Source: an uncultured Candidatus Altimarinota bacterium
Lineage (GTDB): Bacteria > Patescibacteriota > Gracilibacteria > BD1-5 > UBA2023
Reading direction: 5' to 3'
Assembly: GCA_963751115.1 (NCBI GenBank)
Contig: CAVVTN010000002.1
Location: 58,197 to 122,196 of the forward strand
Length of the DNA stretch: 64,000 nucleotides
The notes beneath the pieces are model-generated. The model had not been told where the DNA came from. It worked only from the letters and a program-made list of their open reading frames with translations, and made no database searches. Position numbers and translations under genes: made by a program. This document shows, piece after piece, positions 1-56,870 of this stretch. Position 1 is the stretch's first letter, and each line of letters opens with the position of its first letter.

Positions 1-2
1 TT

Positions 3-209
3 GCTGGAAGTAAAGACAAGATTTTCGGAGGGCTTGGTGAACATGAGATTATCCTCGCTATCCAGAAAAAATACGCTGTGGAATTAGAGAAAAAACACAT
101 TCTCCTCCCAGAAGGACACAAACTCAAACAAGTCGGGGTTACAGATATCAAAATCCACCTCTGAAGCGATGTTAATATCAAGATGCATATTGAGATAAAA
201 AGCAAGTAA
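3..209 (+). CDS. rplI: 50S ribosomal protein L9, C-terminal part (5' end outside window)
   Basis: Frame 3 reads AGSKDKIFGGLGEHEIILAIQKKYAVELEKKHILLPEGHKLKQVGVTDIKIHL-G(TGA)-SDVNIKMHIEIKSK, then TAA at 207-209. Fits the L9 C-domain pattern. Confidence 0.75.
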
Positions 210-407
210 TCATGGAATGGAGTGTTGTCATTTCGACCGAAACGCAGTGTAGTGGAGAAATCCCTTTTAACTACCACATTTGAAGCAATATTTTCTTGAT
301 ATAGATGAAATATCCTGTAATTTCTTTTAGAATAGTTTCGTAATATTGATCTAAAGAGATCCCTCGGCTTCGCTCGGGATGACAAATACTTTTAATTTTT
401 CTGTTTT

Positions 408-803
408 ATGTCCATCCTCGCCATCGACTACGGAACCAAGAAAATCGGACTTGCGATAGAGATAGAATGAATCGCTCTTCCACTCTCTATTATTCCTGCT
501 AAAGAAGCTTTTTCTCGTCTCCCAAAGATTGTCAAGGAACGGTGTATTGATAGGGTTCTCATCGGGATTGCGAATCATATGGATGGCACAACCTCAGAAC
601 AAGCACTTCGCACTCGTGAATTCGGGAAAAAACTCAAAAATATTCTCCCGAAAGATATACAATATATAGAATGGGATGAACGATTGACAAGCTTCGAAGC
701 GAAAAATGCGGTAGATCCTTTCGGAAAAGATCCGAGGAAATTGATCGATGATATAGCCGCAGGAATATTATTGCAGAGTTATTTAGATGCGATGAAATCG
801 TAA
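408..803 (+). CDS. ruvX: Holliday junction resolvase-like protein RuvX/YqgF
   Basis: ATG at 408. MSILAIDYGTKKIGLAIEIE-G(TGA)-IALP... continues in frame into track ORF 579..803 (MDGT...WDERLTS...). Confidence 0.85.
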
Positions 804-831
804 AACTGAAATAATTTAATTTTTAATTTTT

Positions 832-1512
832 TTGCTCGTGCACCTCTGATTTATCATGGACGGAAATCGTCGATGGGCTAAAAAACACACTATCAAAACC
901 TTTCTCGGTCATCAGGAATGACGAATCCGTCTCGAGGAAATGGTAGAACTTTGTTATAATGGAAAGGTAGCATACTGCAGTTTCTGGGCACTTGCCAAGA
1001 AAAATATAGAGAATAGAAGTACCGAAGAACTCGCCTATCTCTACGATTTGCTCGTGAAAAGCATTCAGAGTCTCCTCCCAAAACTCCTCGAAAAAAGTAT
1101 CAAATTTGAATGGGTGGGAAATCCAGATATACTTCCACCACATATCGTCAAAGTCCTCGATGATGCCAGAAAAGAAGCAGAGAATGGAACGAAAATGACC
1201 CTTATTTTGGCAATCGGATATGGTGGACAGGATGAAATTATCCGTGGGATGAAGAATTTCGTAAAAAATGGTGGCGATATAAATTCGCTCGATGAAACCA
1301 CTTTGCTTCCTTTTCTGGACACAGGACGATTTCCTCCACCAGATTTGATTGTACGAACGGGTGGCGATACGAGACATTCTGGATATTTCCTCTATACGAG
1401 TGAATATAGTGAATATTATTTCACCGATACACTCTGGCCCGATTTCAAAGAAAGAGAATTCTACAAAGCCCTCGAAACCCTCAAATGAGCCCGACGTATG
1501 TTTGGAAAATAA
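832..1512 (+). CDS. uppS: Undecaprenyl diphosphate synthase
   Basis: Track ORF 940..1488 extends upstream through TGA codons (..FIMDGNRRWAKKH..GHQE-G-RIRL) and downstream (ETLK-G-ARRMFGK, TAA 1510-1512). Start codon (TTG 832 or GTG 838) is uncertain. Confidence 0.8.
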
Positions 1513-1525
1513 TTTTTTATAATTT

Positions 1526-1984
1526 ATGGCTTCACTTACTATCTCACTTCACGTCAATAAAAAAGCCTTGTTCGATTACGAAATCGTGCAGGGATACGAA
1601 GCGTGAATAAAATTGACCGGACCAGAAGTGAAAAGCGTACGAGCAAAACAGTGTAATCTGAAAGGAAGTTATATAAGTCTCGCTTCAGGACGCCCTGTTC
1701 TCAAAGGACTCCACATCTCCCCTTATGAACATTTGCCTCATAAACTCGGGATCGATCCATCGGCGGACCGAGAAATATTTCTCCACAAGAAAACCATCGA
1801 TTACCTCACAGGGAAACTCAAGGAAAAAGGATTTTCACTCATTCCTACAGAAGTATATTCCAAAGGAAATCTGATCAAGATATCGGTCGCACTGGCCCGA
1901 GGACGAAAAGTTTTCGAGAAAAAACAAGTATTGAAAGAGCGAGATGTGAATCGAGATATGGAACGAGAAATCGGAAGATACTAA
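1526..1984 (+). CDS. smpB: SsrA-binding protein SmpB
   Basis: ATG at 1526. MASLTISLHVNKKALFDYEIVQGYEA-G(TGA)-IKLTGPEVKSVR joins track ORF 1613..1984 in frame. Confidence 0.9.
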
Positions 1985-2150
1985 AATTCCAAGATGATTT
2001 CACTATATTTTTCGAAAGAGCGAGGACTGTTTGAACACTTCTGATTTTAGACGTGAGTTCCGCAGGAAGTGAGAAAAGATATATTAAAATCATGAAAACA
2101 AGAGAGTATACCAAAAAGGATTCAGCAAGAATCCTTTTTTGAACTTCTTT

Positions 2151-3473
2151 TTATAAAAAATGCTCCGATACTCGTATCTTTTCTTCTGAAACTTCGATGG
2201 TATTGCGAATATGTGGAACGAGAAATGAAGACGGAACTATATGGATATTCACTTTCTGCAACAATTTTCTGAGAATACAAACTTGGAAATATTTGCAAGA
2301 TACAGCAAGATACATAATCGGGTTTTTCGAACGAATAACATTCAAAAACGCTCAAAGACTCGGATTTTTTGGAATCATATCTTCACTTTCCATCTGTGAA
2401 GGAAATGGCGAGAGGAGTCCAAGATCATGATAGGTTACCAGTGAAAAAATACCAGATTTGTTTACTTCTCCAATTACGAGTGGACCGAGAAATCGGCTCA
2501 CACTATGGAGCCATATAACATCTGGCTGAAAATCTCGGATTTTTTTTCGAATCCCTCGAGCAGATGTAACATTACAAAGAGAATATACCAGTCAGAGGAG
2601 TCGAAGAAATTTCGTCCATTTCCCTTTCTGTAACTCCCATCCGAAAATCTCGACTTCATATCCGTGTTGTCGAAGAACTCGTGCGATGGTTTGTACATGT
2701 GTCTCGATACCACCAAGGATTGTCACATAATCACTCGCGAGCAATATTTTTTTCGTATCTTTCGGGAACATATTTCGTACCTGTTCCACCCATCGTTCTT
2801 CGGTATAACTATCGGCGATATGTCGAGATTGGTGAGAGAGTAGTGCCCAATCAGATTCTGTCCTAGTATTTTCGGACGTACTATTCGAAGTATATGTATC
2901 TGAAACTTCTAGGATTTTACTGACAAGTGTTTCTACGTTTTTTGCATCGTTTGTCGAAAATGGGATGGCGAGTTCTGGAAGTATAAAAGGGATGAGTCCT
3001 CATTTTCAAAATCCTATCACGGGAACTCCTTCCGAGAGTGATTCCAAAGCTGAGAGTCCGAAAGTTTCCAAGAATCTTGATGGCATCAGAGTGAAGTGAG
3101 AGACTTCCAATATATCCCGTATAGTTCCCTGTGCCTGCCATCCGAAGAAATAAATCTTGAAATCCTCTCATTCAGATCCCTCACTCCCAACCCCTCTCCC
3201 AAAGGAGAGAGGGGAGTTACTCAGAAGTTCCATAGTATCAAAAATCTCATCCTCTGAGAACTTCGAGCAGTCCTCAAAGAATGGACTTCCTGCAAAAGTT
3301 TCGAAGAATTCTTTTTTCAAATCACCTTCCCCAAATAGGAAGAAATTCCCAGGAAGTTCCCCAGTTTTTTGCACTATTTCTGAAAGCGCTCCGATAATCA
3401 AATCGAAACCTTTTTCTCTCGCGAGTCGTCAGAAGAAGAGGAAGTTCATAGAAAGATTTTCTAAAAAGTACAT
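2151..3473 (-). CDS. GT4-family glycosyltransferase ORF with domains in reversed order (C-terminal Glycos_transf_1-like half first, then N-terminal Glyco_trans_4-like half)
   Basis: One table-25 frame has no TAA/TAG from 3473 to 2151. It reads MYFLENLSMNFLFFGRLAREKGFDLIIGAL...IYFFGWQAQGT..MPSRFLETFGLSALESLSEGVPVIGFGKGGL...SYTEERWVEQVRNMFPKDTKKILLASDYVTILGGIETHVQTIARVLRQHGYEVEIFG...HFL, stop TAA. It joins track ORFs 3168..3401, 2592..2789 and 2151..2345. Confidence 0.65.
3174..3215. repeat. GC-rich palindromic element (ccctcac..cccctctcccaaaggagagagggg type) inserted in frame in the glycosyltransferase ORF
   Basis: Encodes SPLSFGRGVGSEG inside the ORF. Related copies lie at about 35628-35735, 39385-39410, 39713-39766 and 40975-41012. 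Confidence 0.6.
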
Positions 3474-3575
3474 AGTACACAGTAGACTATGTACTATGTA
3501 CTTTTTTGCAAGTGATTTTTATGGTTTTTTGAAAATAAACAAGTGTTCGTGCATAATGAGGAGGAAATTGTATTT

Positions 3576-4538
3576 CTACAATTTAACTATAAAATATTTA
3601 TCAATTTCTCTAAGCCATTCATCACTTTCTAATATATTTTTACTTGGATTATAAATAATTTCAGGAATGTAATCTCTTTCAGAAATTCTCTGTCTATCTA
3701 CAAGGTACAGCATATAATTATCTCGTTTAATTTTTGCCACATTCATCTCATTTTTAGACCAGTAAAAGGATTTTTTTTAAGAAAAAGATTTAACTTCAAT
3801 GAATCTATCTGAAGTAACAGAATCTATAGAATTATAAGACAAAATATCAAATCATGCGGAGACATCATAATGCGATATTTGGACAATATTTTTAAGTCAT
3901 GAAAGGCGTTCTTTTTCAAATTCTAAAACAAATATTTCTGCCTCTTCTCAATGTAGCTGATCTAAATCCAACCGATTTTTTAATTCTTCTAAAGTCATTT
4001 TTTTCTTAGCATCAATAATTATATTTGAATCTCAGATAATAGGTTGATGAATAGGATTAATTAAGAATCTATAGGGATTATCCTTGTTAATAATCAATAC
4101 AGATAAATCTATAAGTAATTGTTTAAAACTCGAATACTTAAAATCAAATGCGTCATTGGAAAGTTCAAGTTTTGATTCAACTATATTATACGAAAGATAA
4201 TCTGGCGAAAATATTGGCAACAAATCCAGCTTTAATTCCCTATTTTGAAAAATGATTTTTACTAAACTCTTTTTCAGTTCATTGATATCGGTAATGTATA
4301 AAAGAAATAACGATTCTTTTGATACATACAAATATCATCATGACTGAATAAAAACTCAGAGTCGTAAAAATAATTCAACTCAACCATCAAAAACAGTCCT
4401 TGAATCAATTTGTCGATTATAAAAATGGGATGTAAGATCTGGCTGACTCCACCGTTCTATGGTGCAGAAAAGATGAAGTAACTCGACAAAGTACAATGGA
4501 GTTCCGAGATTCTTGTATACCTTAAGATTTTCGAGCAT
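3576..4538 (-). pseudogene. DUF3883-like (restriction-endonuclease-like) protein, interrupted by an in-frame TAA at 3777-3779
   Basis: ATG at 4538 overlaps the SNF2 gene 3' end. It contains track ORF 4032..4331 and continues ..HYDVSA-G-FDILSYNSIDSVTSDRFIEVKSFS-TAA-KKSFYWSKNEMNVAKIKRDNYMLYLVDRQ...FIVKL, TAG at 3576-3578. The motif pattern fits DUF3883. Confidence 0.55.
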
Positions 4539-6471
4539 ATTTCTTTAGGAGTTCTTTTATAATATCTGATTCATCTGATTCATTTAATCTAAAAAATAAA
4601 GGAATATCGGCATCAATAAGTTTTTCCATTCGTTTTATTTTTTCATTTAATTTATCATTAATAATTTCATCTATAGTATCTCTCGTAATGAGATAGTAAT
4701 ATGTTGTTTTTTGATTTGGAGGAAGTCAATATCTATGAATCCGATCCTTTGATTGAAGAAAATTGGAACAATTATAATCTCTTTCCAAATAAATTGCATT
4801 ATGACATCATTCGTGCAATGAAATTGATTCTGCCACTGAGAAAGGATTCGCAATAACTACGGAAAAGTCTTTATTTTCTGGATTATTAAATTTTCAGACA
4901 ATCTCTTCTCTCTCACTCATGGGAACTTCTCATATTAAAAGTTTGGATTTTATTCATTCTGATTCAAGATAATCTTTCAATCATTTAGCATTTTGAACAA
5001 ATATAGTCCAAATAATCACCTTTCCATTAGTTGGTAATATGTCCGTTCTAATAATATCCAATGTCTTTGAAAATTTAGGAGGAGTATGATTATTTAAGTA
5101 TGTTGTAATTTTATTCCTTATTGCTGAGTCATTTTGAAATTCTTCTGGAAGGTTTTTATAATCTTCTTCATATTCTTCTTCATTTAAGCTTTCTTTAATG
5201 GTAGAATTGAGTAATCATGGATTAATAGCAGCCTGTCTCAGTCTTATTAACTTGGCTTTATTTAGGAGATCTTTCAAAGTTCATCAGGCATTCTCTTTAA
5301 ATGAATTGATGAACTTTATGGCAATAAAATCATAGATTTCACGCTGAGTATCATCCATTGTAATAAATTCTAATTTTTCAGATATACCTGGTAATTTTAG
5401 GTCAGATTTTTTAATTCTGATAAAATAAGGAGAAATATTTTTTATAAATTCTTTTACCCTTAAACTTTCATCGTCGGAATTTTTCGTCATTTCCTCAAGT
5501 TGTTGGAGGTGGATTTTTAATATCTCTGGATACTTGAATGGATAAATAAATTTATACAAGTTAAAAAGATCTTCGTACCCATTTGGTATTGGAGTTCAAG
5601 TAAGGATAACTCTTGAAATAGCATCTTTTGAAATCTCGGTGGCAGAAGTTCACCATATTCAACGGGAATTCTTTATTCTATGAGCTTCATCAACTATAAC
5701 CATAGTTTTGTTTTTCTTGAGAAAATCGCGAATTTCTTTTTCAAGAGCATTGACGTATCAATGGTTAATAAGAGTAAGTTCTGATGGATTTCCAGAATAT
5801 AAATGCTGTATCTTTTGATTTTTAGAAATTTCTTGATTTCCAGAAAGTCTCGTTGATGTAATATTTATTCAATGACATTTGAAGTATTGCTCTTCCCATG
5901 GTGAAAAGGATGACAATGGTCAAATAACTAATATTTTATCAACATGCCTTGGGTCTGAGACTGGGAGATTCTTTAGATAGGTATATGCCGCATATACGAT
6001 TGTTGTTTTCCCTGCTCATGGAACAGCAAAATTACAACTATTCTGTGCAAATGTCATATGGAAAGCGGAAAGCATCTGTAAGTCATATAGTTTTCGGCTC
6101 ATATTTCTACCTAGAACTTCTTGAAAATCAGCAAACATTTCTACGAGTTCGGGATTATCTTTAAACTCATTATCTCTAATTTTTTGAGCATTCTCAGAGA
6201 ATTTTCAAAAATTATCCAATTCTCTTTGGTAGTCAGAAAAAACCTCCTTGATTTTATCAGAAATTTCAAAACGAATTTCGAATTTCTTAAGAATAGCTTC
6301 AATATCTCTCAAGACGTTAACTCTCTCTCCTTGATTAAATCAAATAATGAAACTATCAGTAGATACTATCGGATTTAACCTCCTAAGAGATAAGAGAAAT
6401 CTCTTATCTCTGGATAATCCTTCTGTATCGCAAGAAAGAATAAATGAAGAATCGCTTATATCTAAGAGCAT
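4522..6471 (-). CDS. SNF2-family helicase (about 649 aa)
   Basis: Table-25 ORF in frame with track ORF 5284..5559. Motif I is FAVP-G(TGA)-AGKT, motif II is VDEAHRIKN, motif III is LT-G-TPIPNG, and the C-lobe reads SLHE-G-CHNAIYLERDYN..FLQSKDRIHRY-G. TAA at 4522-4524. Confidence 0.85.
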
Positions 6472-6487
6472 AGTAATTAATTTAATA

Positions 6488-7861
6488 TTAAGCTCCTAAA
6501 CTTTTCTTAATTTCATAAGTAAGATGATGGATTTCCTTTACTTTTTCAAGAACTTTCTCTTTTCAATCACCCAATGCTCCAAAATTTATGCGATTTAAAT
6601 CATCAATCATATCACCAAGCAATATAACTGGAGATTTTTTCCCAAGTAATTTTCTAGTTAATTTATCTATTTCTTCCAATTGAGTTAAAGCTTGTGAATC
6701 AATAGGTTTATTCAAATCTATCGCACTAATCTTGTTTAATGCTCAGGATGTTAACTCATATGGCCTATCTTTTGAATCACGATCTCAAATATATGTAAGA
6801 TGAGTATTGAAATTATTTTCTAAAAAAACATAAGCATTCTCTTTGAATTTAGAATCTCTATCATTCAAATGTGCTTCTAAATTATTAGATGATTTATCTA
6901 TAAAGAGTTCCTGATCTTGAAATACCTTTATTCATTCAAAATGTTTTTTTGAAAAAGATTCCCAAATATTTTTGTCTCAAAATAAATGACTTGTTTTGTG
7001 TCAATTGGCTAATTTCCTAAATTTTTTATCTTCAGTCCCAAATTTAATACGAATATAATCAAAAGCAATAAACTTGAGATCATCAACATCATTGTCGGAA
7101 TAGCCATCAAATCATTTTAGACTCGCTCATCAATATAAATTCTGTAACCATCAATGAAGACTAATAAATAAATCCTCTTGTCACTCCATTAATTGAGTAT
7201 ATATTCAGTCATATTCTAAATATTCCAGATACTCATCCATTAATTCTTTTATCTCAACTAATTGTTTAATCTTTCAATCAGTTTCCCCCATCCATATAGC
7301 AATATCATTGGTAGATACTCATCTTTTCGTAAGATTCCAAGCTTTTAAATATTTTTCAATTGGATTATAATCCAATTTTCTATCTTCTCACATCTGATGT
7401 CTAGTTTCAAATTCTTCAATGGAGTTCCTATCATCCTCTAATGTAACTGGAAGAATAATGGCCTTGAAGAATTTCTGCCCTGCCCTATTAAGAAGCATTG
7501 CTCGACGATTTCAGTCTATAATAATACCATCTTTAGTAATGATTCACACTTTTTCTTGTCAAATCTTTATGAGACTTGCTAATGTATCTTTATTTCTATT
7601 TTCTTTAGATTCCCATAATAGTTTCTCAATCAATATTTTTCATTCCTCTTGCTCAACATCTATAGAGCAACCCTGTGTTTCAAGGGATAATGTACGACTT
7701 AATATTCTTCAGTTATATTTATTATAAATCAAAAACTCCAAAGGAATCTTATACACATCAAACGATACCAAATCATCTTGCCAAAGAATATCTTGTTTTC
7801 AATATGGATTTCCTTGATTAATAATAGCCTGTATTTTCTGAATGCGTGTTTCCTGATTCAT
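6488..7861 (-). CDS. ParB/Srx-like N-terminal domain protein with a long helical C-terminal region (about 457 aa)
   Basis: ATG at 7861, 10 nt after the methyltransferase stop. It reads ..IPLEFLIYNKYN-G-RILS...I-G-QEKV-G-IITKDGIIID-G-NRRAMLLNR.. (ParB-type DGNRR core). About 25 in-frame TGA codons; TAA at 6488-6490. Length is a multiple of 3. Confidence 0.65.
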
Positions 7862-7871
7862 AAAAGTAAAA

Positions 7872-9563
7872 TTAAAGAAATAATTTACCTAAGCTATATA
7901 TCACATATAATTGCCCTACTGGCACCTGACTTTTTGGGATTATGCCATTACTAAAAATCAAATCCTCTTTTTCTTCTCTTCTTTGAATAAATTCATTAAT
8001 CTTTTTCAAAATATTTATTGGATTTCTTGAATCCTCTAAATTCACATCCTGCTCATAGTATTTTTGTAATTCAGCTTCATTTCTAATACAAAGGGTATCT
8101 AAATATTTTAAATAATCAACTTTAAATTCAGCAAAGCCTTTTATTCCATCTTCTATATATTTTTCTATAATCTTATAGTTTTCCCTATCTATAACTATCT
8201 GACTGAATCAAGCTCAGGTTCAGAAAAACATCTGAATATACCACTTCTTCCCATAACCCTCTTTTCAGTCAATATAATTCATAAGTTCAACCGTAATATT
8301 TCCTGATTTATATGGATGCCTTCTGAATCTTGCATTCACATTCTTTCTTTTTGGTTTATCGAACTTCATTTCATTGAAAGTGTTGAGTTTAATTTTAACT
8401 TCCTTATATCCATTGTCGAGAGATGAAAAGTCTATTTTTTCTATACTTGGCAATCTAAGTTCTTTTCTAATAACCCTTGCTAGGGCTGCGCTGAGATGTG
8501 GAGATACAGCGTTTCATACCTGCCTCCACTTACTTGACTCGGTTCAGGTAAATTGGTAAGTAATTGGGAATCCCATGAGTGATGCTATTTCACGAATCGT
8601 CGGAAGACGGTACTCTCCATTTCATTTTCTATTATACTCCGATTTATATATAAGAGATTCCCTAGTTTTTGCTGAACGGGTAGCCATTATTGTTCTACAT
8701 GGTTTATCCTTATTCTCAGGAAAAGACATTCTACCCATGAAAGAATGGTTTTGTTTCAGATATTGTGCCTCTTCCCATTCGATAGTATAAAGTCAGGTAT
8801 CATAAAAATGGTCAGTAAATTTCTCACCGATAATTTTTAGGTTTTTATAATTGGGGTCAGTAAATTCAGACTCCATTACATCTTTTTCTGTCATATTCGG
8901 TAATGGTAGTAGGTCACGTATATTTCATGAGGTAATATATATCTCATGGGTCTTTTTTGGAGTTAAAAATTTTTGTGTTTCACACCATTCTCAGCATATA
9001 AATCGTTTTCTGCTTTGTGGTGCACCATAATCTCAAGAATTAAGAATACCTCAGTTATCTTTAACTATAAGAGCTGTGTCATCTGGTTTTTTTCAAATTG
9101 TTTTTGCCCACTTTGAAAGATTTAATCTTTCAAATGAATACTCTTCCTCAACAAACTTTTGGGAATTTGGAACATTCTCCATATACCAGACTTTTAGTTT
9201 TGAATCCGTTTTGTATTTTTTTACAGCAATTACACGAAGAAAAGACTCAATAAGTTTCAATCAGTGAGTTTTATCAGCTTTTCAAGATTTATTAGAGGAA
9301 GAAAATGAGATACAAGGAGGACTTCAAATTATACAAGTTGTATCTTCTAGTTTTTCTATCTCGGATATATCTTCGGAGTCTTCGGACCAAAAATCAAGTA
9401 CACTTTTAACAGAATCACTCAATCAGTGATTCAAATTATGTGTATCTATGGCTGGTTGCCAATAATCAATTCATCGAACAATCTTAAATCATTGTTGTCT
9501 AAATCATTCCGAAAAACCTCCAGCTCAACAAAAAAAATCAATTACTGTTAACTTATTTTTCAT
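7872..9563 (-). CDS. dcm: DNA (cytosine-5) methyltransferase with an approximately 190 aa C-terminal extension
   Basis: ATG at 9563. Motif I is VIDFFC-G(TGA)-AGGFSE-G-F, motif IV is I-G-SPPCISFS, then ENV, QSRKRF and V-G-NAVSP. In frame with track ORF 8265..8453. TAA at 7872-7874. Confidence 0.9.
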
Positions 9564-9640: not shown

Positions 9641-10910
9641 CTATTTCTTCCTCTTCCCCACAAAAACTCCCAACATCAAGAATAAAATCAGAGATATATA
9701 TACGGATTCGAAACTATGCAAGAAGAGGTTCATCGTCAGAACGGCGACAAAGGCAGCGAAAAATGCGGGAGAAAGTGGGAATATCATCCAGGCAATCATC
9801 CCCATAATCGCACAAAAGAGGACGAACGCGACGATTCCTCATTCCACCAATTGCTGGATATACCAACTCTCGGGAATGTAATAATCCTCGGTATTTTCTA
9901 TCTTCCCTCCATATATCGGCGTATCGGCGAGTTTCACGACATAGCGATAGGCAGGTCCCGCAGTTCCCAGTCCTTGTCCCATGGGATGTTCTCGAAATCG
10001 CTCAATTCCAGTCAATGCCCGATCAAAATGCCCTTTGGACGAACTCGTCCGCATAATAATCTGGTCGATATTTCCCTCGTAACGAATGTAGAAAAGTCCA
10101 GAAATAGTCGCGAGAAAAACGATAATATACATACTTTCTTTTCGGTATTTATGTCAAATGGTTTTGAGAGAAAAAGCGATCAAAATGAGAAATCCCATAA
10201 TAATTCCTATGATAGAACTACGCGAGTAGGTGAGAAAAATGAGTCCAAAAAGTACCATAATCCATATTCCTATGAGGAAATGATGGGCTTTCTTGGTTCG
10301 AAAATAGTGCACCAAAAGTCCGATATAGATGATGATAAAATAGGCAGCAGGATTCGGTCCGTCAAAAATCCCTTGGAATCTTTTGATTCGAGCTCCATCG
10401 ATTCCATGGTAGATGGGCGGTGTTCCCCCGAAACTCCAGTTCGAGAGATTGGGAGAAAATCCAAAATGCAGGAGAATGGTTTCATGGAAGACGAAACGCA
10501 CCAAAATCCCAGCAGCAAGAGCCATACTTGCGGAGAGGAGAAATATCTTCAAGTATTGTGCCACTGTTCCCCGCAGGAGAGTGCTTCCGTGTTTTGCGAT
10601 GAGGAATGCGATGAGGAATTCGAAATCGTACCGTCCACCATACACGAGTGAAGCGAGTCCGAGTCCATTTACCAGTGTGATAATGACTAAGTATCCGATA
10701 TACGATCCGATCAGATAATCGAGGATATCGAACTTGGGGAATATTTTCTGCTTCCAAAAATCCCATAGCAAGAAGCACAAGAAGGGCGATGAGAAATATT
10801 TCCTTGAAGAAACTAATTCCCGGAATCCCGAGTTTATTCCCAAGAAAAACCGTTCCAAGAACGCTCCAAGGAAGAAGAATGAGAAGAATGCGGAAAATAC
10901 GGTCAAACAT
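9641..10910 (-). CDS. O-antigen ligase/polymerase-like (Wzy_C family) membrane protein; one +1 frame change near 10736-10739
   Basis: The N-terminus lies in the frame of track ORF 10482..10910 (MFDRIFRILLILLPWSVLG..). The frame then switches at a CCCC run to the frame of 10154..10906 and continues through TGA into 9839..10132 and on to TAG at 9641-9643. Confidence 0.7.
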
Positions 10911-11064
10911 AATAGAGAATGTGAGTAAATAGGATTTTAATTTCGATGTTCATATGGTCTTGGAATTTTCTGTATAACCACTGACTTCATATGGACAAGA
11001 AATAAAAACCTATTTGCGAGCCCAATAATAATGAATCAATAAAAAAATTTGAAGATTAATTTTC

Positions 11065-11298: not shown

Positions 11299-11532
11299 AT
11301 GACACAAATCGATCCAAAAAAAGTTGCAGACACGGTTGCTGCACTCAAAAGAAAACCCATTGTTTCCAGCGCTTGTATCGGATGTAGCGCCTGTGTTGCT
11401 ATCTCTGGCGATGTATTTGAACTCAATGATGACGGATATTCCATCGTTATGGATATCGAGGATTACGAAGGAAAAGATGTCGATGACAGTATCGTCGCTT
11501 GTCCCGTAAGTGCCATAAGTTGGTCAAAATAA
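11299..11532 (+). CDS. Small 4Fe-4S ferredoxin
   Basis: Internal ATG of track ORF 11230..11532. MTQIDPKK...ACIGCSACVAISGDVFELNDDGYS...DDSIVACPVSAISW. Confidence 0.75.
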   Translation: MTQIDPKKVADTVAALKRKPIVSSACIGCSACVAISGDVFELNDDGYSIVMDIEDYEGKDVDDSIVACPVSAISWSK

Positions 11533-11553
11533 TTTTATAACTATTTTAAAAAT

Positions 11554-11889
11554 ATGAATACACTAAAATCTTCTAAAGTAGAGAATCTTAGTCTCTATAG
11601 TCAAGCAGTATTACATTTTTCTCCTTTGGGAAAGATGATAGAAAGAAGGTCAAATATCTGAAGAATACTCTCTATTGATGAGCTTTCATTGGTATTTACA
11701 GAAGTTGCTCGTAATGAATGTCCTACAGAAATAGGTCTCTTTCAAAAAAATTATCTTACCCTTTCTGACACAGATAAAGAAATATTTATACAAGAAAATA
11801 TCACACCATTACAAGAAAATTTCTGTCTCTTAAGAACACAAGAAAAATTTCTTAAAAGATTAGAACAGTGACTCGCAAGAAGAGGATAA
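11554..11889 (+). CDS. Hypothetical protein (111 aa)
   Basis: ATG at 11554 reads through TGA into track ORF 11689..11871, then ..LEQ-G-LARRG and TAA. Confidence 0.45.
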
Positions 11890-11894
11890 ACTTT

Positions 11895-11936
11895 AAAAAA
11901 ATATCCCCAATTCATAAATGAATTGGGGATATTTTA
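11895..11936. terminator. Bidirectional hairpin terminator between convergent genes
   Basis: Sequence aaaaaa-atatccccaattcat-aaa-tgaattggggatat-tttt. Confidence 0.6.
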
Positions 11937-11944
11937 AAGTAAAA

Positions 11945-12847
11945 CTATGATTTCAGGATATCTTCATGGATACTATGAACCGCAAGACAACCTTCGGCAG
12001 CACTCATAATTGTTTGTTGGAATTTATTGGAAGCAGTGGTGATATCCCCAGCAGCATAGAGTCCCGGAACATTCGTTTGCTGACGAGCATCTACGACGAT
12101 ATATCCTGCACTATCTTTTGTCGGATTCAAACCATCGATAATCGCTGTCTCTGGCTGATTCCCGATTGCTACGAAAATCCCATCTACTGCCAGCTCATTT
12201 CCCGTATTGAGGATCAATTTTTCCACTCCGAATCCTCATTCGATAGAAGTCACGCTCGTTTCAAAATGTACCTGAATATTGGAATGTTTTGCAAGTTGAT
12301 CTATCCACACCGTCTCCGCACGAAATTCGTTTCCCCGAACGAGAATATGAACTTCCTTGCATATTTCTGCAAGATAGAGCGCTTCGGTGATAGCAGTATT
12401 TCCCCCACCAACCAGAGCGATATTTCGATTTCGGAAAAACATCCCATCGCAGGTTGCACAATAGGAAACTCCGGCACCGAGGAACTTCTCTTCTCATGGA
12501 ACTCCCAGTTTTCGGTATTTATTCCCGATGGCGAGAAGTACATATTTCGCCTCGAGAGTTTTCCCACTCGCTGTTTTGACAGTGAAAATATTTCCCGATT
12601 TTGTCACACTCGAAACCTCATCTTGGATGAGTTCTGAACCAGCCAAAACCGCATGTTCCGTAAAACGGTCCATAATCTCTCGACCGGTTGCCGAGATAGT
12701 TCCTGGATAATTTTCTACTTTGTGAGAAGTTGCCAAAGCTCCGCCCGGCATCGCTCCGATAATGCAATTATTGAGTTTGTAACGAGAAGCGTACATTCCT
12801 GCTGGAAGTCCTGCGGAACCAGCTCAGATGATAATAAGATCGTACAT
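11945..12847 (-). CDS. trxB: Thioredoxin reductase
   Basis: MYDLIII-G(TGA)-AGSAGL (FAD GxGxxG motif). Track ORFs 12494..12796, 12236..12442 and 11945..12226 are all in one frame, joined by TGA. CATC redox motif present. TAG stop. Confidence 0.9.
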
Positions 12848-12874
12848 AAAAGTGATTGATTATAAATCTAAAAA

Positions 12875-13447
12875 TTATTCTTTATTCTCCATCTCCTGCT
12901 CTCTGTGATTTCGCTTCGCCTTATTCTCCTGAATCACATTACGAATGATACTCGCACTATCTATGGGAGACGGAGCAAAGTGCATAATGAAATTGGAATT
13001 CTCGGAAGCAGTATGCATAGAAACGGTTCCATAATTGAAGAGATTTTCGAAAAGTCCTTTTGTCTGAGCATTTACCTCTTTGACATCTTCGAGGGAACAT
13101 TCTGAAATCGTTCGGTTGAGAAATGACAATTGCTCTATTCCACGAATTCTCTGGTCAGTTATGACGAACAAATCGAGTTCATTATTTGCCCAAGTAACAT
13201 AGAGAAACAAGAGGTAAATAGACCAGTATAAAATCAGAAAAACGGAAAAGAAGGTATTCGGAATAAACGAGAAAACAGTGTTTTGATATGCAAGAAGTAT
13301 AATGGATGAAAATACCAAAAAGAACGCAGAAAATCCAAGATAGAGATATACTATCCAATGACGCTTCAGAACGAGTTTTATTTCTTCATCGGGACGGAAA
13401 GTATTTCGGAGTCCAGACAAATTCATTCCGTGAATATTGAGAGACAT
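12875..13447 (-). CDS. Membrane protein with two TM helices and a bacterial PH-like (YdbT/DUF304-like) domain
   Basis: Intact track ORF ending in TAA. Similar in architecture to 16540..17076. Confidence 0.6.
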   Translation of the reverse strand: MSLNIHGMNLSGLRNTFRPDEEIKLVLKRHWIVYLYLGFSAFFLVFSSIILLAYQNTVFSFIPNTFFSVFLILYWSIYLLFLYVTWANNELDLFVITDQRIRGIEQLSFLNRTISECSLEDVKEVNAQTKGLFENLFNYGTVSMHTASENSNFIMHFAPSPIDSASIIRNVIQENKAKRNHREQEMENKE

Positions 13448-13459
13448 AAAATATGAAGA

Positions 13460-14029
13460 TTAGGTGATATTTGGTTTTTTTATATACAATGGGCTTATTT
13501 TCTCTTGAGGATTCTCAAAGAGAAAGTTTTTACAACACATCTCATATTTCAGGTCCGATTGTATGGAAATTGTATCGTTTGTAAAATCATTTGCATCGCC
13601 CATTCAGAAATAGTTTCCTGCAGGAATATCAGAAAGAGCAATAAGTGCTGGGGAATTTTCTACATCTTTTTGAATGAGGTATTCTCCACGATTCGCCCGA
13701 AGAAGTATCGGGAATGTCCATCCTGAAAGTATTCCCATTTGAAAATAATCAATACTGTAGAGCGGAATATGGTGCACAAATGAAAGTGTATTTATCGTGA
13801 GCGTAATAATCCGCATCGCCGTAAAACTTCCCGGACCATTCACGACAATCACTCACTTAAGATTGGTGTATTTCAGCTTATTTTCCGTCAAAAATTCTTG
13901 CAGAGAAATAAGAAAATATTCTGATTCTCTACCTCGAAGTTCCAGAGATTTTTGCGAAATAATATGCCTCTCAGAATCGAAAAGAATATAGGTTGCAGGG
14001 AGAGAAATGGTTTCTATGAAAAGATACAT
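13460..14029 (-). CDS. tsaB: tRNA t6A modification protein TsaB (YeaZ)
   Basis: ATG at 14029. ..YTNLK-G-VIVVNGPGSFTAMRI.. contains track ORF 13604..13852, then reads through TGA to TAA at 13460-13462. Confidence 0.75.
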
Positions 14030-14103
14030 AGGAATAATGAGTTTAATGAAAATTTAAATAAAAATAGGTTTTATTGAAAGATTATAAGAATACAGAACAC
14101 ATT

Positions 14104-26581: not shown

Positions 26582-27139
26582 TTAGATGACTATTTCTTTT
26601 GGCTTAACAAACACAAGAAATCAGATAAATATTATATTCACGACTGGAATAAGTAAAAGAAAGAGAAGCTTTCGAGATATTCCAAGTGTATTAACACGCC
26701 TGAATGAATCTATGAAGCAGGCATATATAGGTAATAATGATAAAATATATGCAAAATATAGTATACTACTATGATAGTGATCTGTAAAATTCATTGTAAT
26801 ACTAGCCAAATTCATCCATCATGTCAGTGTCAGATTTATAGCAATTGAAGTTAAAAATGCTGTTGGTAATAAGTATAATAAAACTCCACTTAGACTATAA
26901 CCAATAATATCTTTGATATACTCTTTTCTATCACATAAACCTTCTCATAAGAAATCACTCTTTTGCCACTTAGTCGTAATAAATAATTTATATGCTCAAT
27001 AAATTAGCGGTCCTCCGATAACAATATATACCATAATATTTGTAGAGAGACTAAATTTCACTCCCGCACCAATTATATCTTGAATAAAAAGAAGTACTAT
27101 ATAGAGAAAGATGGTAATTTTAAAAAGTTTCCAAGACAT
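26582..27139 (-). CDS. DUF805-like membrane protein (inserted between atpA and atpG)
   Basis: ATG at 27139 reads through several TGA codons into track ORF 26621..26815 (..RRVNTLGISRKLLFLLLIPVVNIIF..), ending at TAA 26582-26584. AT-rich. Confidence 0.6.
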
Positions 27140-28830: not shown

Positions 28831-29247
28831 TTAGATTATTTCAATTTCAGTAATTTCAAGTGGATCAGGTCAAAATCTATTTGATCCAATGACTCATTTG
28901 AAGAAAAATACGTAGATAAGAAAGAAAAAACCAACTATTGGTATATATCATAAAATGACCAACCACCCAGTTTTATCTAAATCATGCAATCTTTTGATTC
29001 TTAGAAATATAGATCAAACGAAAAATATCACAATTAACCATGCTATACTGATAAACATTAATCAATTGGCAAATAATGTAACATCTAATGAATTGACTTT
29101 CAAGATCCATCAAATAATGGAATTTATCAAGAAAATAAGAAACAGTCATAAAGACCCAACTCAGATTAGTTTAAGTTGTTCTATTATATGTTTCTTTCTG
29201 TTATATCTCCCTTTTGAAGAAAACAATTCTTTGAAATATTCTTTCAT
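28831..29247 (-). CDS. DUF805 membrane protein (inserted between atpH and atpA)
   Basis: MKEYFKELFSSKGRYNRKKHIIEQL...IKRLHDLDKTGWLVIL-G-YIPIVGFFFLIYVFFFK-G-VIGSNRF-G-PDP.. with nine in-frame TGA codons. TAA at 28831-28833. Confidence 0.7.
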
Positions 29248-32203: not shown

Positions 32204-32638
32204 TTAAAGAATATTATTCTGCGTATATTCAAAGGGTTTTTCATTTCAATCAAACTTGAATTCTTTTTCTCAGTCATTGGAAAGTTTTGACTCTTGTCAT
32301 TGTATAATCAATATCTTTTCTTTTTCTCAAATTTTATTTGCAATAAAAACAAATAACAATAGTAATGAAGCTATTATTATAAAAATAAATCCACCACCTG
32401 TTTCACTCATTCTCAACCAAAATTTTTGAACATCTGTTGTATGTAAATTATTTATATCTGTATAACATGGACCTCTGGAGTACTTCGGACAAGTTAATGG
32501 GAGTTGATAATATTCCATTAAAACATTATCATTTATTTGAGAATTAATAAAACTATTTCATATAGTTGTACCAACGGTAGTACAGAAAATAAATAAAACA
32601 ATCCAAAATATTGCTTTTAAATAGCTACTTGGAACCAT
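32204..32638 (-). CDS. Hypothetical membrane protein (144 aa)
   Basis: ATG at 32638 (MVPSSYLKAIFWIVLFIFCTT..) reads in frame through TGA into track ORF 32327..32518 and on to TAA at 32204-32206. Confidence 0.4.
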
Positions 32639-51256: not shown

Positions 51257-51517
51257 CTATTTATAGACATCTCATCTGCTTCATATTTTGATGACACAGA
51301 TTATTAACTCGCTATGTTCTATTTTGTAAATTACCCGGTACTTTCAGACGCGGAGTCTGTATCTTTTATCTTCTTTTGGAGAGAGTATTTTGATGTCGAG
51401 TAACTCTTCTCTTCCGATAGCTAAAAGAGTCAGTTTTTCTTCGACTTCTATTTGTAATTTTGTGGGAAGGTTCAAAAACTCTTTTGTCGCTGTTTTCTTG
51501 AAGACGATTTTATACAT
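51257..51517 (-). CDS. RelE/ParE-family toxin
   Basis: MYKIVFKKTATKEFLNLPTKLQIEVEEKLTLL...KEDKRYRLRV-G(TGA)-KYRVIYKIEHSELIICVIKI-G-SR-G-DVYK, TAG at 51257-51259. Confidence 0.8.
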
Positions 51518-51662
51518 TCGATAATTTTTTACTGATATGAATGTATTTTTTAATATCCTCAAAATCAAAACTCTCTTCAGATTCACGAGCCTGGAGATCA
51601 AGTAACTCTTCATCTGAGATGGTTTCTACTGGAAGATTTTTTGTTAAACGAGAGAGATTCAT
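51510..51662 (-). CDS. Putative antitoxin (50 aa)
   Basis: MNLSRLTKNLPVETISDEELLDLQARESEESFDFEDIKKYIHISKKLSNV. Its stop overlaps the toxin ATG (a-atg-ta-taa arrangement). Confidence 0.5.
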   Translation of the reverse strand: MNLSRLTKNLPVETISDEELLDLQARESEESFDFEDIKKYIHISKKLSNV

Positions 51663-55310: not shown

Positions 55311-56870
55311 TTATTGTATCTGACTTGCTAATATTTTAGAAATCTCTGCACGTGTAATATTATCTTTTGGTCGAAAAATAAGTTTGTTATCAACTACTTG
55401 CCCGGAGATAATTTTTTGATCTTTCGCTGCTTCGATATATTTTACGAATCATGAATCGGGCGTTACATCGGAAAATGATGTAGTGGTGAATTTGCTCGTA
55501 TCAAGTTTCAATGATAGAGCAAGTATCTTCATCGCTTCCTCACGAGTAATCGTATCGTTTGGTCGGAATGTCTGAAGTGTAACATTGATGAGATTATTCT
55601 TCACTGCATATGCAATATAAGGTGCATACCAAGATGATTCGGACACATCTGAAAATGGTGTAGTCTTAGAAATATTAGTTATATCACCACCGATCGTTCC
55701 TATTATCATTTTCAAAAATTCTGCTCTGGTAGTATTATTATTTGGATTAAATTTTTCACTATTATTAACCACTCATTTAAGTGACAATTTGACGATATAA
55801 TCGTATGCCCAGTTATTTTGGATATCAATAAATAGTAACTCGGAAGTTGTTTTTGGAAGATTCGATGTTGTTTTCTTTTTTGGAATATTCTTATGTATTA
55901 TCTTTTCTGGTATCGTATTATCATTCACAACATTTTCTCATGAAGTAACCACAGAGACTCCTGATCATGTACATTTCCCATCGGTATTGGATCCAGAATT
56001 ATCACCATTTGGACAGGAATCTGCAAGAGTAATCATTCATCCACCTCAACCACCACCTCATCCTCAGGATGATATTGGAGTAACTTTTGTTGTAACAGTA
56101 TAAGTATCAGAAAATCCACATCCACCACCTCATCCTCAAGCTCCTCCTCCTCCTCATCATCCTCACCCACCACTACCAGTAACTAATGAGGGACATGTAT
56201 AAGTAACTAATAGGACTGCATTTACTGCAGTCAAATATATAGCAGATGAAGTAACTTTTACTTTCACGGTATCTCCACTATTAATACTCCCTCCCGAAGC
56301 GGTGTACATTCCGCCATTAATCGCATATTGCCCACCAGAAATATTTATCATTGCTGGCACATTCATTCCTGTAATTGTGACAGTATTGGATTCATAAATA
56401 TTTGAAAGTTCCGCATTTGATATATCTACGAAAGTAAATGTATTTGGAACGGTATGAGTCACGATACTTATATCGTAGCGACAAACCGCCGAGATAAATA
56501 TAATTGCCGATTTAACGGGACAATTTGCTCATCGATTCGTGTCATCAATATTATCTACACCGATATTAAAAGTATTCCCTAGATATACCACTTGCATGCT
56601 CAGATTTCCTGTAAATGACTGGAGTGTCGGAGTGATTTCTGTAGCGCCGACTCCACCAAACTGACCATCTTTCGTTGTGGTATATTGCAGAAGTACTGTA
56701 TTGTTCGAATCTAGAAATTTCACTACTGCTCAAGCAGGGATATTTGTTTGTCCATCTTTCAATGTTCCCCAGATAGACATAGGAAAGGAAGGAAATCCAG
56801 AAGCGGCAAAAGCATTCTGTATCTGCAGCAAAGAGATGAAGATACAGAGAAGGAGAATATATTTTCTCAT
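55311..56870 (-). CDS. Secreted cell-surface protein with C-terminal SLH domains and poly-Gly linkers
   Basis: ATG at 56870 (MRKYILLLCIFISLLQIQNAFA). Track ORFs 56529..56723, 56163..56462 and 55449..55772 share one frame. The SLH repeats read FSDV..WYAPYIAYAV..FRPNDTITREEA. TAA at 55311-55313. Confidence 0.75.

Follow-up and report, generated by a model that had tools for sequence, protein, structure and literature searches.

What is the function of four tightly packed genes, headed by a cytosine methylase gene, that form an AT-rich island in the chromosome of an uncultured Candidatus Altimarinota bacterium? The genes lie at positions 3576-9563 of a 64,000-nucleotide stretch of contig CAVVTN010000002.1, the whole of which we call the window. 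An earlier note, made from the letters of the DNA alone, had singled them out as a candidate non-canonical, modification-linked restriction or defence system. We propose, with a probability of about 0.62, that this four-gene cassette belongs to a widespread, unnamed, AbiR-like and methylation-gated ParB-SNF2 defence system, that it was acquired horizontally, and that its effector has been inactivated in this particular copy. The proposal of a defence system is supported by three observations: the conserved synteny of the four genes, the swapping of effectors at the fourth position, and a resemblance to the AbiR system of Lactococcus lactis.

The genes were called with TGA as a sense codon and not with translation table 11, which breaks region 3576-9563 into dozens of short open reading frames (ORFs); reading TGA as sense more than doubles the summed length of long ORFs in the window. 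The features of the locus are as follows.

7872-9563, minus strand: cytosine methylase gene, 563 amino acids under genetic code 25
6488-7861, minus strand: ParB-like gene, 457 amino acids
4522-6471, minus strand: SNF2 gene, 649 amino acids
3777-4538, minus strand: fourth gene, 5' part, 253 codons and a TAA stop
3777-3779, minus strand: premature in-frame TAA, codon 254 of the fourth gene
3576-3776, minus strand: in-frame 3' remnant of the fourth gene, 66 codons and a TAG stop (3576-3578)
3474-3502, minus strand: terminator-like hairpin and T-run, about 75 nucleotides downstream of the operon's last stop

Called in this way, the four co-directional genes are separated by gaps of 10 and 16 nucleotides and joined by one overlap of 17 nucleotides, exactly as the earlier note had described. 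The operon is probably terminated by the hairpin and T-run at 3474-3502, which is enclosed by an inverted repeat at 3458-3511 with 26-nucleotide arms that are 88% complementary.

The cassette recurs well beyond this genome. We sought relatives by scanning one genome per species across 185,579 species, and found them in 184. We then compared 87 loci, 80 of which were fetched from the species scan; the 87 include some duplicate copies of one contig. All four genes were present in the same order and orientation at 68 of these loci, and the ParB-like and SNF2 genes formed a pair at 86; the first three homologue contexts inspected contained the same four genes at the same sizes. Hosts of the 80 loci include members of the Candidate Phyla Radiation (CPR)/Patescibacteria, Bacteroidota, Campylobacterota, Proteobacteria, Firmicutes, Acidobacteriota, Chloroflexota, Verrucomicrobiota, Omnitrophota and Melainabacteria, along with one Methanolobus archaeon. 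An exhaustive hidden Markov model search returned 227 clusters at 50% identity (E<=1e-30). The ParB-like family comprises at least 2,140 clusters at 90% identity, with about 50% identity across phyla, and its members are all annotated as hypothetical proteins.

Carriage by plasmids and viruses is rare. No full-length homologue was found in the 72,556 plasmids of PLSDB, and homologues are limited to two among 2.9 million viral contigs and two among 50,697 phage records. One relative, in Streptococcus phage Javan191 (locus L090, positions 1-6607), opens the record of a predicted S. equi prophage, and consists of a fragment of a BanI/DpnII-like endonuclease, ParB-like, SNF2 and NOV_C genes, and a divergent Dcm gene; it probably represents host DNA bordering the prophage, or else cargo of the latter. 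The earlier note had named two outcomes as fatal to its proposal, namely that the four genes would not co-occur elsewhere or that they would belong to a prophage or partition module. The 68 loci with all four genes and the 86 with the pair dispose of the first, while the near-absence of the cassette from plasmids and viruses, together with the lack of a ParA gene, speaks against the second.

The arrangement of the last two genes is itself conserved. Among 66 loci with distinct fourth genes, the SNF2 gene and the fourth gene overlap by 14-26 nucleotides in 64, the commonest overlap being 17 nucleotides, as in the window. The exceptions are one overlap of 35 and one of 44 nucleotides, and two loci whose fourth gene encodes a MutH-domain protein have a short gap instead. 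Because the overlap is conserved, the sequences argue for translational coupling of the SNF2 and fourth genes.

What varies is the effector. The 66 distinct fourth-position products comprise 58 proteins with a NOV_C nuclease domain, six with a TIR/SEFIR domain and two with a MutH domain. The NOV_C and TIR clades share a homologous N-terminal domain (hhalign probability 98.5%, E 1.6e-15, 184 columns), and the TIR/SEFIR protein of Sulfurimonas CS5 falls directly within the N-domain alignment of the NOV_C clade. The two MutH proteins are a case apart: they are longer (464-485 amino acids), share only about 15% identity with the NOV_C family in a joint alignment and appear unrelated to it. The swap of NOV_C and TIR domains on a shared N-terminal domain points to a role in conflict or defence: swappable toxic effectors on a constant adaptor are typical of immune systems and are hard to square with repair or partition.

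Three loci from Nomurabacteria/Paceibacterota (L016, L017 at 11369-14066, and L013) have the ParB-SNF2 core but neither the methylase nor the NOV_C gene of the cassette. The core is followed in L016 and L017 by a MutH-domain endonuclease and a different Dcm, as in the restriction-modification pairs of Sau3AI and LlaKR2I, and in L013 a Dcm gene lies on the opposite strand. With their ParB-like, SNF2, MutH-domain endonuclease and Dcm genes, L016 and L017 bridge the architecture of the cassette and that of AbiR-type loci.

AbiR, an abortive-infection system of L. lactis plasmid pKR223, is the characterised system that the cassette most resembles. As described in a 2026 review, AbiR of L. lactis comprises a ParB-like protein (AbiRb), a protein with a nuclease domain and an SNF2 ATPase (AbiRc), and a sigma70-like protein (AbiRa). 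Its genes flank the LlaKR2I restriction-modification system, whose 5-methylcytosine (m5C) methylase AbiR requires and without which it is toxic, and it lowers phage DNA replication by a mechanism that is unexplained (PMC13064643). By the review's description, we matched to AbiR a Lactiplantibacillus plasmid locus that encodes a Sau3AI-family endonuclease with a Dcm, a 421-amino acid protein annotated as ParB, and, in an overlapping gene, an 883-amino acid PLD-SNF2 protein; this locus is probably AbiR-type. The N-domain of the window's ParB-like protein is 32% identical to the plasmid ParB (E 8e-22; profile-profile probability 99.5%), and the window's SNF2 protein is 30% identical to the plasmid PLD-SNF2 protein over 533 amino acids (E 3e-64). 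The C-terminal halves of the two ParB-like proteins are not alignable.

Both AbiR and the cassette place a ParB-like gene beside an SNF2 gene, have a nuclease domain in the system and include a C5-cytosine methylase, functional dependence on the methylase being AbiR's feature; the AbiR-type plasmid locus also shares the gene order and the overlap of its homologous ParB-like and SNF2 genes. There are also differences. In AbiR the nuclease (PLD-type, or 'ATP-dependent endonuclease') is fused to the N-terminus of the SNF2 protein, whereas here a separate protein carries an adaptor and NOV_C; accordingly, the window's SNF2 protein lacks the PLD/PbeA-N-like nuclease domain of its plasmid homologue and does not have the form of a fused-nuclease AbiRc. 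AbiR borrows its methylase from an adjacent type II system, while the cassette has at its head a Dcm of its own, whose C-terminal domain of about 190 amino acids is unique. None of the island genes encodes an equivalent of the sigma70-like AbiRa. Because both the fused nuclease-SNF2 protein and the AbiRa component are missing, we do not file the cassette as AbiR; it is a distinct variant of the same kind, not AbiR itself.

The earlier note had not recognised the gene set as a named system, and no PADLOC 2.0 model matches the whole of it, with the caveat that AbiR exists as a characterised relative. As a system, the cassette is missing from PADLOC 2.0, Pfam and NCBIfam, and we found no description of it in the searchable literature; a paper on Asgard mobile elements and a reappraisal of Dnd systems do not describe this gene set. 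Membership of Hma, DISARM, Druantia, Dpd and ARMADA was considered and rejected, as defining components of each are absent.

Some of these systems share individual parts with the cassette. HmaA, in which SNF2 and NOV_C are fused, suffices by itself to protect E. coli from T4, and both the helicase and the nuclease domain are required for this (PMC11232893); the Hma system, which is related to Type-1 BREX, also includes the DUF1156 methylase HmaB and the DUF499 ATPase HmaC (PMC11232893, PMC12839542). Hma thus combines, like the cassette, an SNF2 motor, a NOV_C PD-(D/E)xK nuclease and a DNA methylase (PMC11232893, PMC12839542, PMC3710099). The motor and nuclease that are fused in HmaA are, however, products of two coupled genes here, overlapping by 17 nucleotides and with an adaptor on the nuclease, and in place of a DUF1156 amino-methylase and a DUF499 AAA+ ATPase the cassette has a Dcm and a ParB-fold protein. 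The island proteins match no Hma model, DUF499 or DUF1156, either in Pfam or in PADLOC (for the SNF2 protein, among the best 25 of 26 PADLOC families).

Dpd offers a precedent for a ParB-fold nucleoside triphosphatase (NTPase) that acts together with a DNA-modifying enzyme and SNF2-type helicases in an island resembling restriction-modification; its components include the transglycosylase DpdA, the ParB-like ATPase DpdB and the SNF2 helicase DpdE (on Dpd, see also PMC10164549). The window's SNF2 protein weakly matches DpdE models (E 1e-10), but the island has no DpdA/TGT, no 7-deazaguanine genes and no DpdB match, and its predicted modification is m5C. DISARM and Druantia type II likewise place a C5 methylase in an operon with large helicases, and the window's methylase matches the DruM and DrmMII models (E 1e-29) and its SNF2 protein the DrmD model (E 2e-15). 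In contrast to those systems, the cassette lacks DrmA/DrmB (DUF1998), DrmC (PLD), DruE, DruF and DruG, while neither of them has a ParB-like protein or NOV_C; a weak DrmA match (E 9.5e-7) is confined to the helicase C-terminal domain. Finally, NOV_C matches the models of PD-T4-1, PDC-S36 and TmtA (E 1.6e-13, 1.8e-9 and 3.2e-12, respectively), but these are single-protein systems or have other architectures, and the similarity is limited to the nuclease domain of about 90 amino acids.

What might each of the four proteins contribute? The first is a Dcm-type methyltransferase with all core motifs and a C-terminal extension of about 190 amino acids, a description that Pfam coverage (PF00145, E 4.9e-37, residues 6-366) and motif inspection both bear out. 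Motifs I, IV (PC), VI (ENV), VIII (QxRxR), IX and X (GNAV) place it among C5-methyltransferases: FCGAGG, GSPPC, ENV, QSRKR and GNAV are all intact under code 25, with invariant glycines encoded by TGA. PADLOC models matched by the enzyme are MTase_II, DruM and DrmMII. Its C-terminal extension (residues ~372-563) is conserved across cassette loci in alignment, and a profile search with it against the PDB gave chance matches only. Genes for very-short-patch repair (vsr) adjoin the cassette in three loci, within a survey of 148 neighbour genes at 63 loci. Vsr is the repair partner of active Dcm enzymes, and these neighbours fit a methylase that is active as an m5C enzyme in vivo.

The second protein had been described as a 457-amino acid protein with a ParB/Srx DGNRR core. 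Its size and the DGNRR motif hold up, and the fold is supported by a predicted structure; the protein has no match in Pfam, NCBIfam or PADLOC. DGNRR is invariant in 58 sequences, and a second motif, ETxxQMGED..YNPIEKY, is invariant too. For modelling, standard-code homologues served as proxies: P0107, with 49% identity to the window's protein, stood in for the ParB-like protein, and P0140 for the fourth. The AlphaFold2 model of P0107 (mean predicted local distance difference test score, pLDDT, 89; predicted template-modelling score, pTM, 0.83) has as its top Foldseek matches in the PDB the CTPase N-domain and helix-turn-helix (HTH) of ParB, Noc, KorB and Spo0J (E 5e-5 to 1e-3, probability 1.0), with sulfiredoxin and PadC also among the matches. 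A ParB-like NTPase N-domain is followed by an HTH region and then by a C-terminal half, about 200 amino acids long, that is helical. The model supports a ParB/Srx superfamily fold, predicted to comprise an alpha+beta N-domain with an arginine-containing nucleotide-pocket motif; the last ~200 residues are helical and novel. A profile comparison by hhalign relates the family to a Firmicute family annotated as ParB, with a probability of 99.5%. One family member of 749 amino acids (P0244) carries a 292-residue N-terminal extension ahead of its full-length match, which could be a fusion with the C-terminal domain of the upstream methylase or a gene-calling artefact.

Compared with the CTP-dependent clamps ParB, Noc and KorB, the cassette protein shares the predicted N-domain and HTH fold, a GxxRR-type arginine motif (here DGNRR) and an acidic motif resembling box III, both of them invariant in the cassette family. 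It differs in lacking sequence-profile similarity to solved ParBs, in its helical C-terminal half of about 200 amino acids, and in having neither a ParA partner nor a parS site.

The third protein is, as had been proposed, an SNF2 ATPase of 649 amino acids (PF00176, E 2.6e-25; PF00271, E 5.8e-8). Walker A (PGAGKT), DEAH, TGTP and motif VI are intact, and a family-specific N-terminal region of about 140 amino acids precedes them. Among the best 25 of 26 PADLOC families matched are ZorD, DrmD and DpdE.

The fourth gene had been read as encoding a 320-amino acid DUF3883 protein. The domain is there (PF13020, NOV_C/DUF3883), but the gene is not one ORF: an in-frame TAA at 3777-3779 ends the product at 253 amino acids and leaves a 66-codon remnant in frame behind it. 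Only when the TAA is read through is NOV_C recognised (E 5.8e-14, residues 200-282). The complete layout is an N-terminal adaptor domain (about residues 1-190), a long linker helix and a NOV_C PD-(D/E)xK nuclease. Codon 254 falls three residues past the ExK and before the WSxNE motif, so the 5' part encodes the adaptor, the linker helix and the first half of NOV_C including D...ExK, and the remnant encodes the C-terminal half with the WSxNE and YxLYLV motifs. The N-domain gave chance matches only in a profile search against the PDB, and Foldseek with the P0140 model returned only weak winged-helix (E >= 0.017) and SPARDA-nuclease matches.

The sequence at the stop reads TCT TAA AAA AAA TCC. 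Homologues mostly have glycine at the codon-254 column, and all three recoded relatives (L058, L062 and L089) have TGA, for glycine, at this codon; the comparison therefore indicates that a single G-to-A transition, from TGA to TAA, truncates the effector here. The remnant retains all family-conserved residues, including W260, N263, E264, Y278, L279, P292 and W308, and for this reason the lesion must be recent, or else a sequence error. With its effector cut short inside the nuclease domain and its other three genes intact, this copy is, on its sequence, most likely restriction-dead but methylation-proficient and in early decay.

These properties suggest how an intact system might work. The Dcm-type methylase, with its intact catalytic motifs and the AbiR precedent, would mark host DNA and so provide self-protection. 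The ParB-fold protein, to judge from its fold, would load on or recognise unmarked DNA. The SNF2 ATPase, which has intact ATPase motifs and an obligate gene partner in the ParB-like gene, would work with the ParB-fold protein, translocate along DNA and deliver or activate the effector, for which HmaA, type I and III restriction-modification enzymes and ZorD offer precedents. The fourth protein, made by translational coupling from the SNF2 gene, would be tethered through its N-terminal domain, and that domain and the C-terminal domain of the methylase may be docking modules. The response would be DNA cleavage by the PD-(D/E)xK nuclease in most systems and, in the minority with TIR domains, presumably NAD+ depletion. 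Alternatively, the ParB-fold protein could act as a cofactor for modification, as DpdB does for DpdA. A more specific version, which we put forward tentatively and hold to be doubtful as it stands, is that the ParB-fold protein is a nucleoside triphosphate (NTP)-gated DNA clamp repurposed as an immune sensor, which would settle on DNA without the m5C mark, recruit or license the SNF2 motor, and switch on interchangeable effectors through the adaptor.

Several points weigh against the defence reading or limit it. The case for the cassette's function is built from sequence and predicted structure. The link to AbiR is strong but indirect, as it runs through a review's description and a probable homologue; no protein named AbiR is among the matches of the homologue searches. 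Profile searches of the PDB with the whole ParB-like protein and with its N-domain gave chance matches only and did not reach canonical ParB. A role for this protein as an NTP- or DNA-binding sensor or clamp is predicted from the modelled fold alone, and it could instead be a nuclease, an NTP-depleting enzyme or a methylase cofactor. The 148 neighbour genes at 63 loci are mostly heterogeneous housekeeping genes, with integrases twice, and show no enrichment for defence islands. Because its neighbours are of this kind, the cassette behaves as a self-contained mobile insert and not as a classical resident of defence islands. The truncation could also be an assembly error, a minority allele or a polymorphism: the sole independent contig of the same organism (L088) is 100% identical over 2,515 bp and ends short of the fourth gene.

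This last point leads to the alternative that the cassette is really intact and an active defence, either because the TAA is an error or minority allele or because the two nuclease halves are made separately and reassemble. In its favour, the remnant has every conserved residue in place, codon 254 is one base away from the TGA of recoded relatives and adjoins a run of eight A, and an ATG inside the remnant opens a 56-amino acid ORF (3576-3746). The change is a substitution, however, not an error in homopolymer length, and substitution errors are seldom found in consensus assemblies; genuine stops in the window are most often TAA, and none of the 66 homologous loci has a split NOV_C gene. We consider an intact cassette unlikely. 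A more distant alternative holds that the genes form an offensive or establishment module of a mobile element, of the DarB/DdrB polyvalent-protein type, that shields the element's DNA and attacks that of the host. Phages and conjugative elements do have polyvalent proteins in which methylase, SNF2 and ParB domains recur as partners (PMC5512222), the composition of the island is foreign, and the Javan191 cassette sits at the edge of a predicted prophage. Set against this are the scarcity of homologues in the viral, phage and plasmid collections given above, the position of the loci amid chromosomal housekeeping genes, including those of tiny CPR genomes, a methylase that is of the C5-cytosine type and not a DarB-type adenine methylase, and TIR and NOV_C effectors on a shared adaptor, which is typical of host immunity. 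On balance such a module is improbable.

We judge it somewhat more improbable still that the cassette is a housekeeping system for epigenetic, chromatin or repair functions, for example MutH-like methyl-directed strand incision, with no role against invaders. MutH-domain endonucleases at the effector position in two loci, vsr repair genes close by in three, and the roles of ParB, Noc and KorB in organising chromosomes or plasmids would suit it. The spread of the cassette would not: it is patchy (184 of 185,579 species, in scattered phyla and at about 50% identity), and this argues for horizontal transfer of an accessory module. Nor do the TIR variants fit easily with repair; AbiR blocks phage replication and is toxic when its methylase is missing (PMC13064643), and the MutH-type genes are paired with a Dcm of their own, like Sau3AI and LlaKR2I systems. 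As for a partition or replication module of a prophage or plasmid, with the neighbouring genes as unrelated cargo, NCBI does label the Firmicute sister family 'ParB/RepB/Spo0J partition protein', but this explanation is already contradicted and scarcely credible: the island neither contains nor adjoins ParA, replication, integrase or structural genes, the ParB-like gene is paired with SNF2 in 86 of 87 loci, the reading frames overlap, and PLSDB plasmids have no full-length homologue. A methylation-gated ParB-SNF2 defence system with an inactivated effector remains the reading that we prefer.

How did the cassette come to lie in this genome? The window is chromosomal, with RNase P RNA, tRNA-Thr, RuvX, UppS, SmpB and a thioredoxin-reductase-like gene, and against this background the island is, as had been noted, AT-rich: its GC content is 29.9%, versus 38.4% in the remaining window, and the lowest non-overlapping 6-kb window outside it has 36.6%. 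It is also dense in TGA codons, with 68 in frame over the four genes, or 3.5 per 100 codons versus 1.0 elsewhere; TGA makes up 55-80% of glycine codons in island genes versus mostly 0-25% in host genes. Of the 21 TGA positions in the ParB-like gene, 13 correspond to columns with a glycine majority in homologues (seven of them invariant) and none to tryptophan, and TGA encodes invariant glycines in DGNRR, in the Walker A motif of the SNF2 protein and in motifs I, IV and X of the methylase. These alignments identify TGA as a glycine codon, not a tryptophan codon, in this genome (code 25).

The island is compositionally foreign, which points to horizontal acquisition. There is no adjoining integrase, we found no meaningful direct repeats or att sites, in agreement with the earlier note, and there is no tRNA junction at the island borders. 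An exact-match search of JGI metagenomes with the left junction for an empty site gave 0 matches, so the case for acquisition is one of composition alone. A promoter scan found fewer matches than in shuffled sequence and was uninformative. Composition, codon usage and recoded relatives support a source in another lineage that reads TGA as glycine and has a lower GC content, and the code-25 origin that had been suggested for the island is backed by its codon usage together with L058, L062 and L089. L058 (648-5985, labelled Candidatus Peribacteria) and L062 (OY782392.1, a Patescibacteria chromosome) have in-frame TGAs in their cassette genes and must therefore also be recoded. The closest methylase is that of L058 (66% identity), in which an insert of about 2.3 kb lies between the methylase and ParB-like genes.

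The flanking genes are those that had been reported, a Wzy_C O-antigen ligase gene (9641-10936) and a GT4/GT1 glycosyltransferase gene (2151-3473), both on the minus strand. The latter has a reversed domain order, its GT1 C-terminal domain (residues 106-191) preceding the GT4 N-terminal domain (254-435), which could reflect a fusion of two partial genes, a rearrangement beside the island or a circular permutation. Elsewhere in the window, a minus-strand ORF at 51257-51613 has 33% GC, TGA at three of its four glycine codons and a match to the ParE toxin family (E 1.4e-7); by these features it may be what remains of a toxin-antitoxin system, and a further acquired element. Three short minus-strand ORFs (26582-27139, 28831-29247 and 32204-32638), one of which encodes a DUF805 membrane protein, have 26-28% GC, and TGA makes up 33-62% of their glycine codons, a share above the host norm and, in two of them, near that of the main island. 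Several small insertions into this host may derive from one low-GC recoded gene pool. A further minus-strand gene at 55311-56870 encodes an SLH-domain surface protein with long poly-glycine runs and 15 in-frame TGAs.

For a host that uses code 25, the fate of the fourth gene points to a particular liability. Each TGA glycine codon is one transition away from a stop, the island uses TGA for 55-80% of its glycines, and this route from TGA to a TAA nonsense codon exists only in recoded genomes. For the family as a whole, two of the four proteins, including the ParB-like core, lack a Pfam, NCBIfam or PADLOC model over most of their length, and current defence-finding pipelines consequently miss the system. 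The cassette joins the ParB CTPase fold, a current topic of chromosome biology, with SNF2 motors and methylation-gated immunity, and the swap of NOV_C and TIR domains on one adaptor is a natural experiment on how sensing is signalled to an effector. Standard-code orthologues in culturable Flavobacterium, Chryseobacterium, Sulfurimonas, Paenibacillus and Bacillus could be used to dissect the mechanism of AbiR. If the ParB-fold protein is indeed a clamp that licenses the SNF2 motor, the family would represent a new 'clamp-and-motor' class of innate immunity, and would explain an AbiR phenotype that is now 25 years old.

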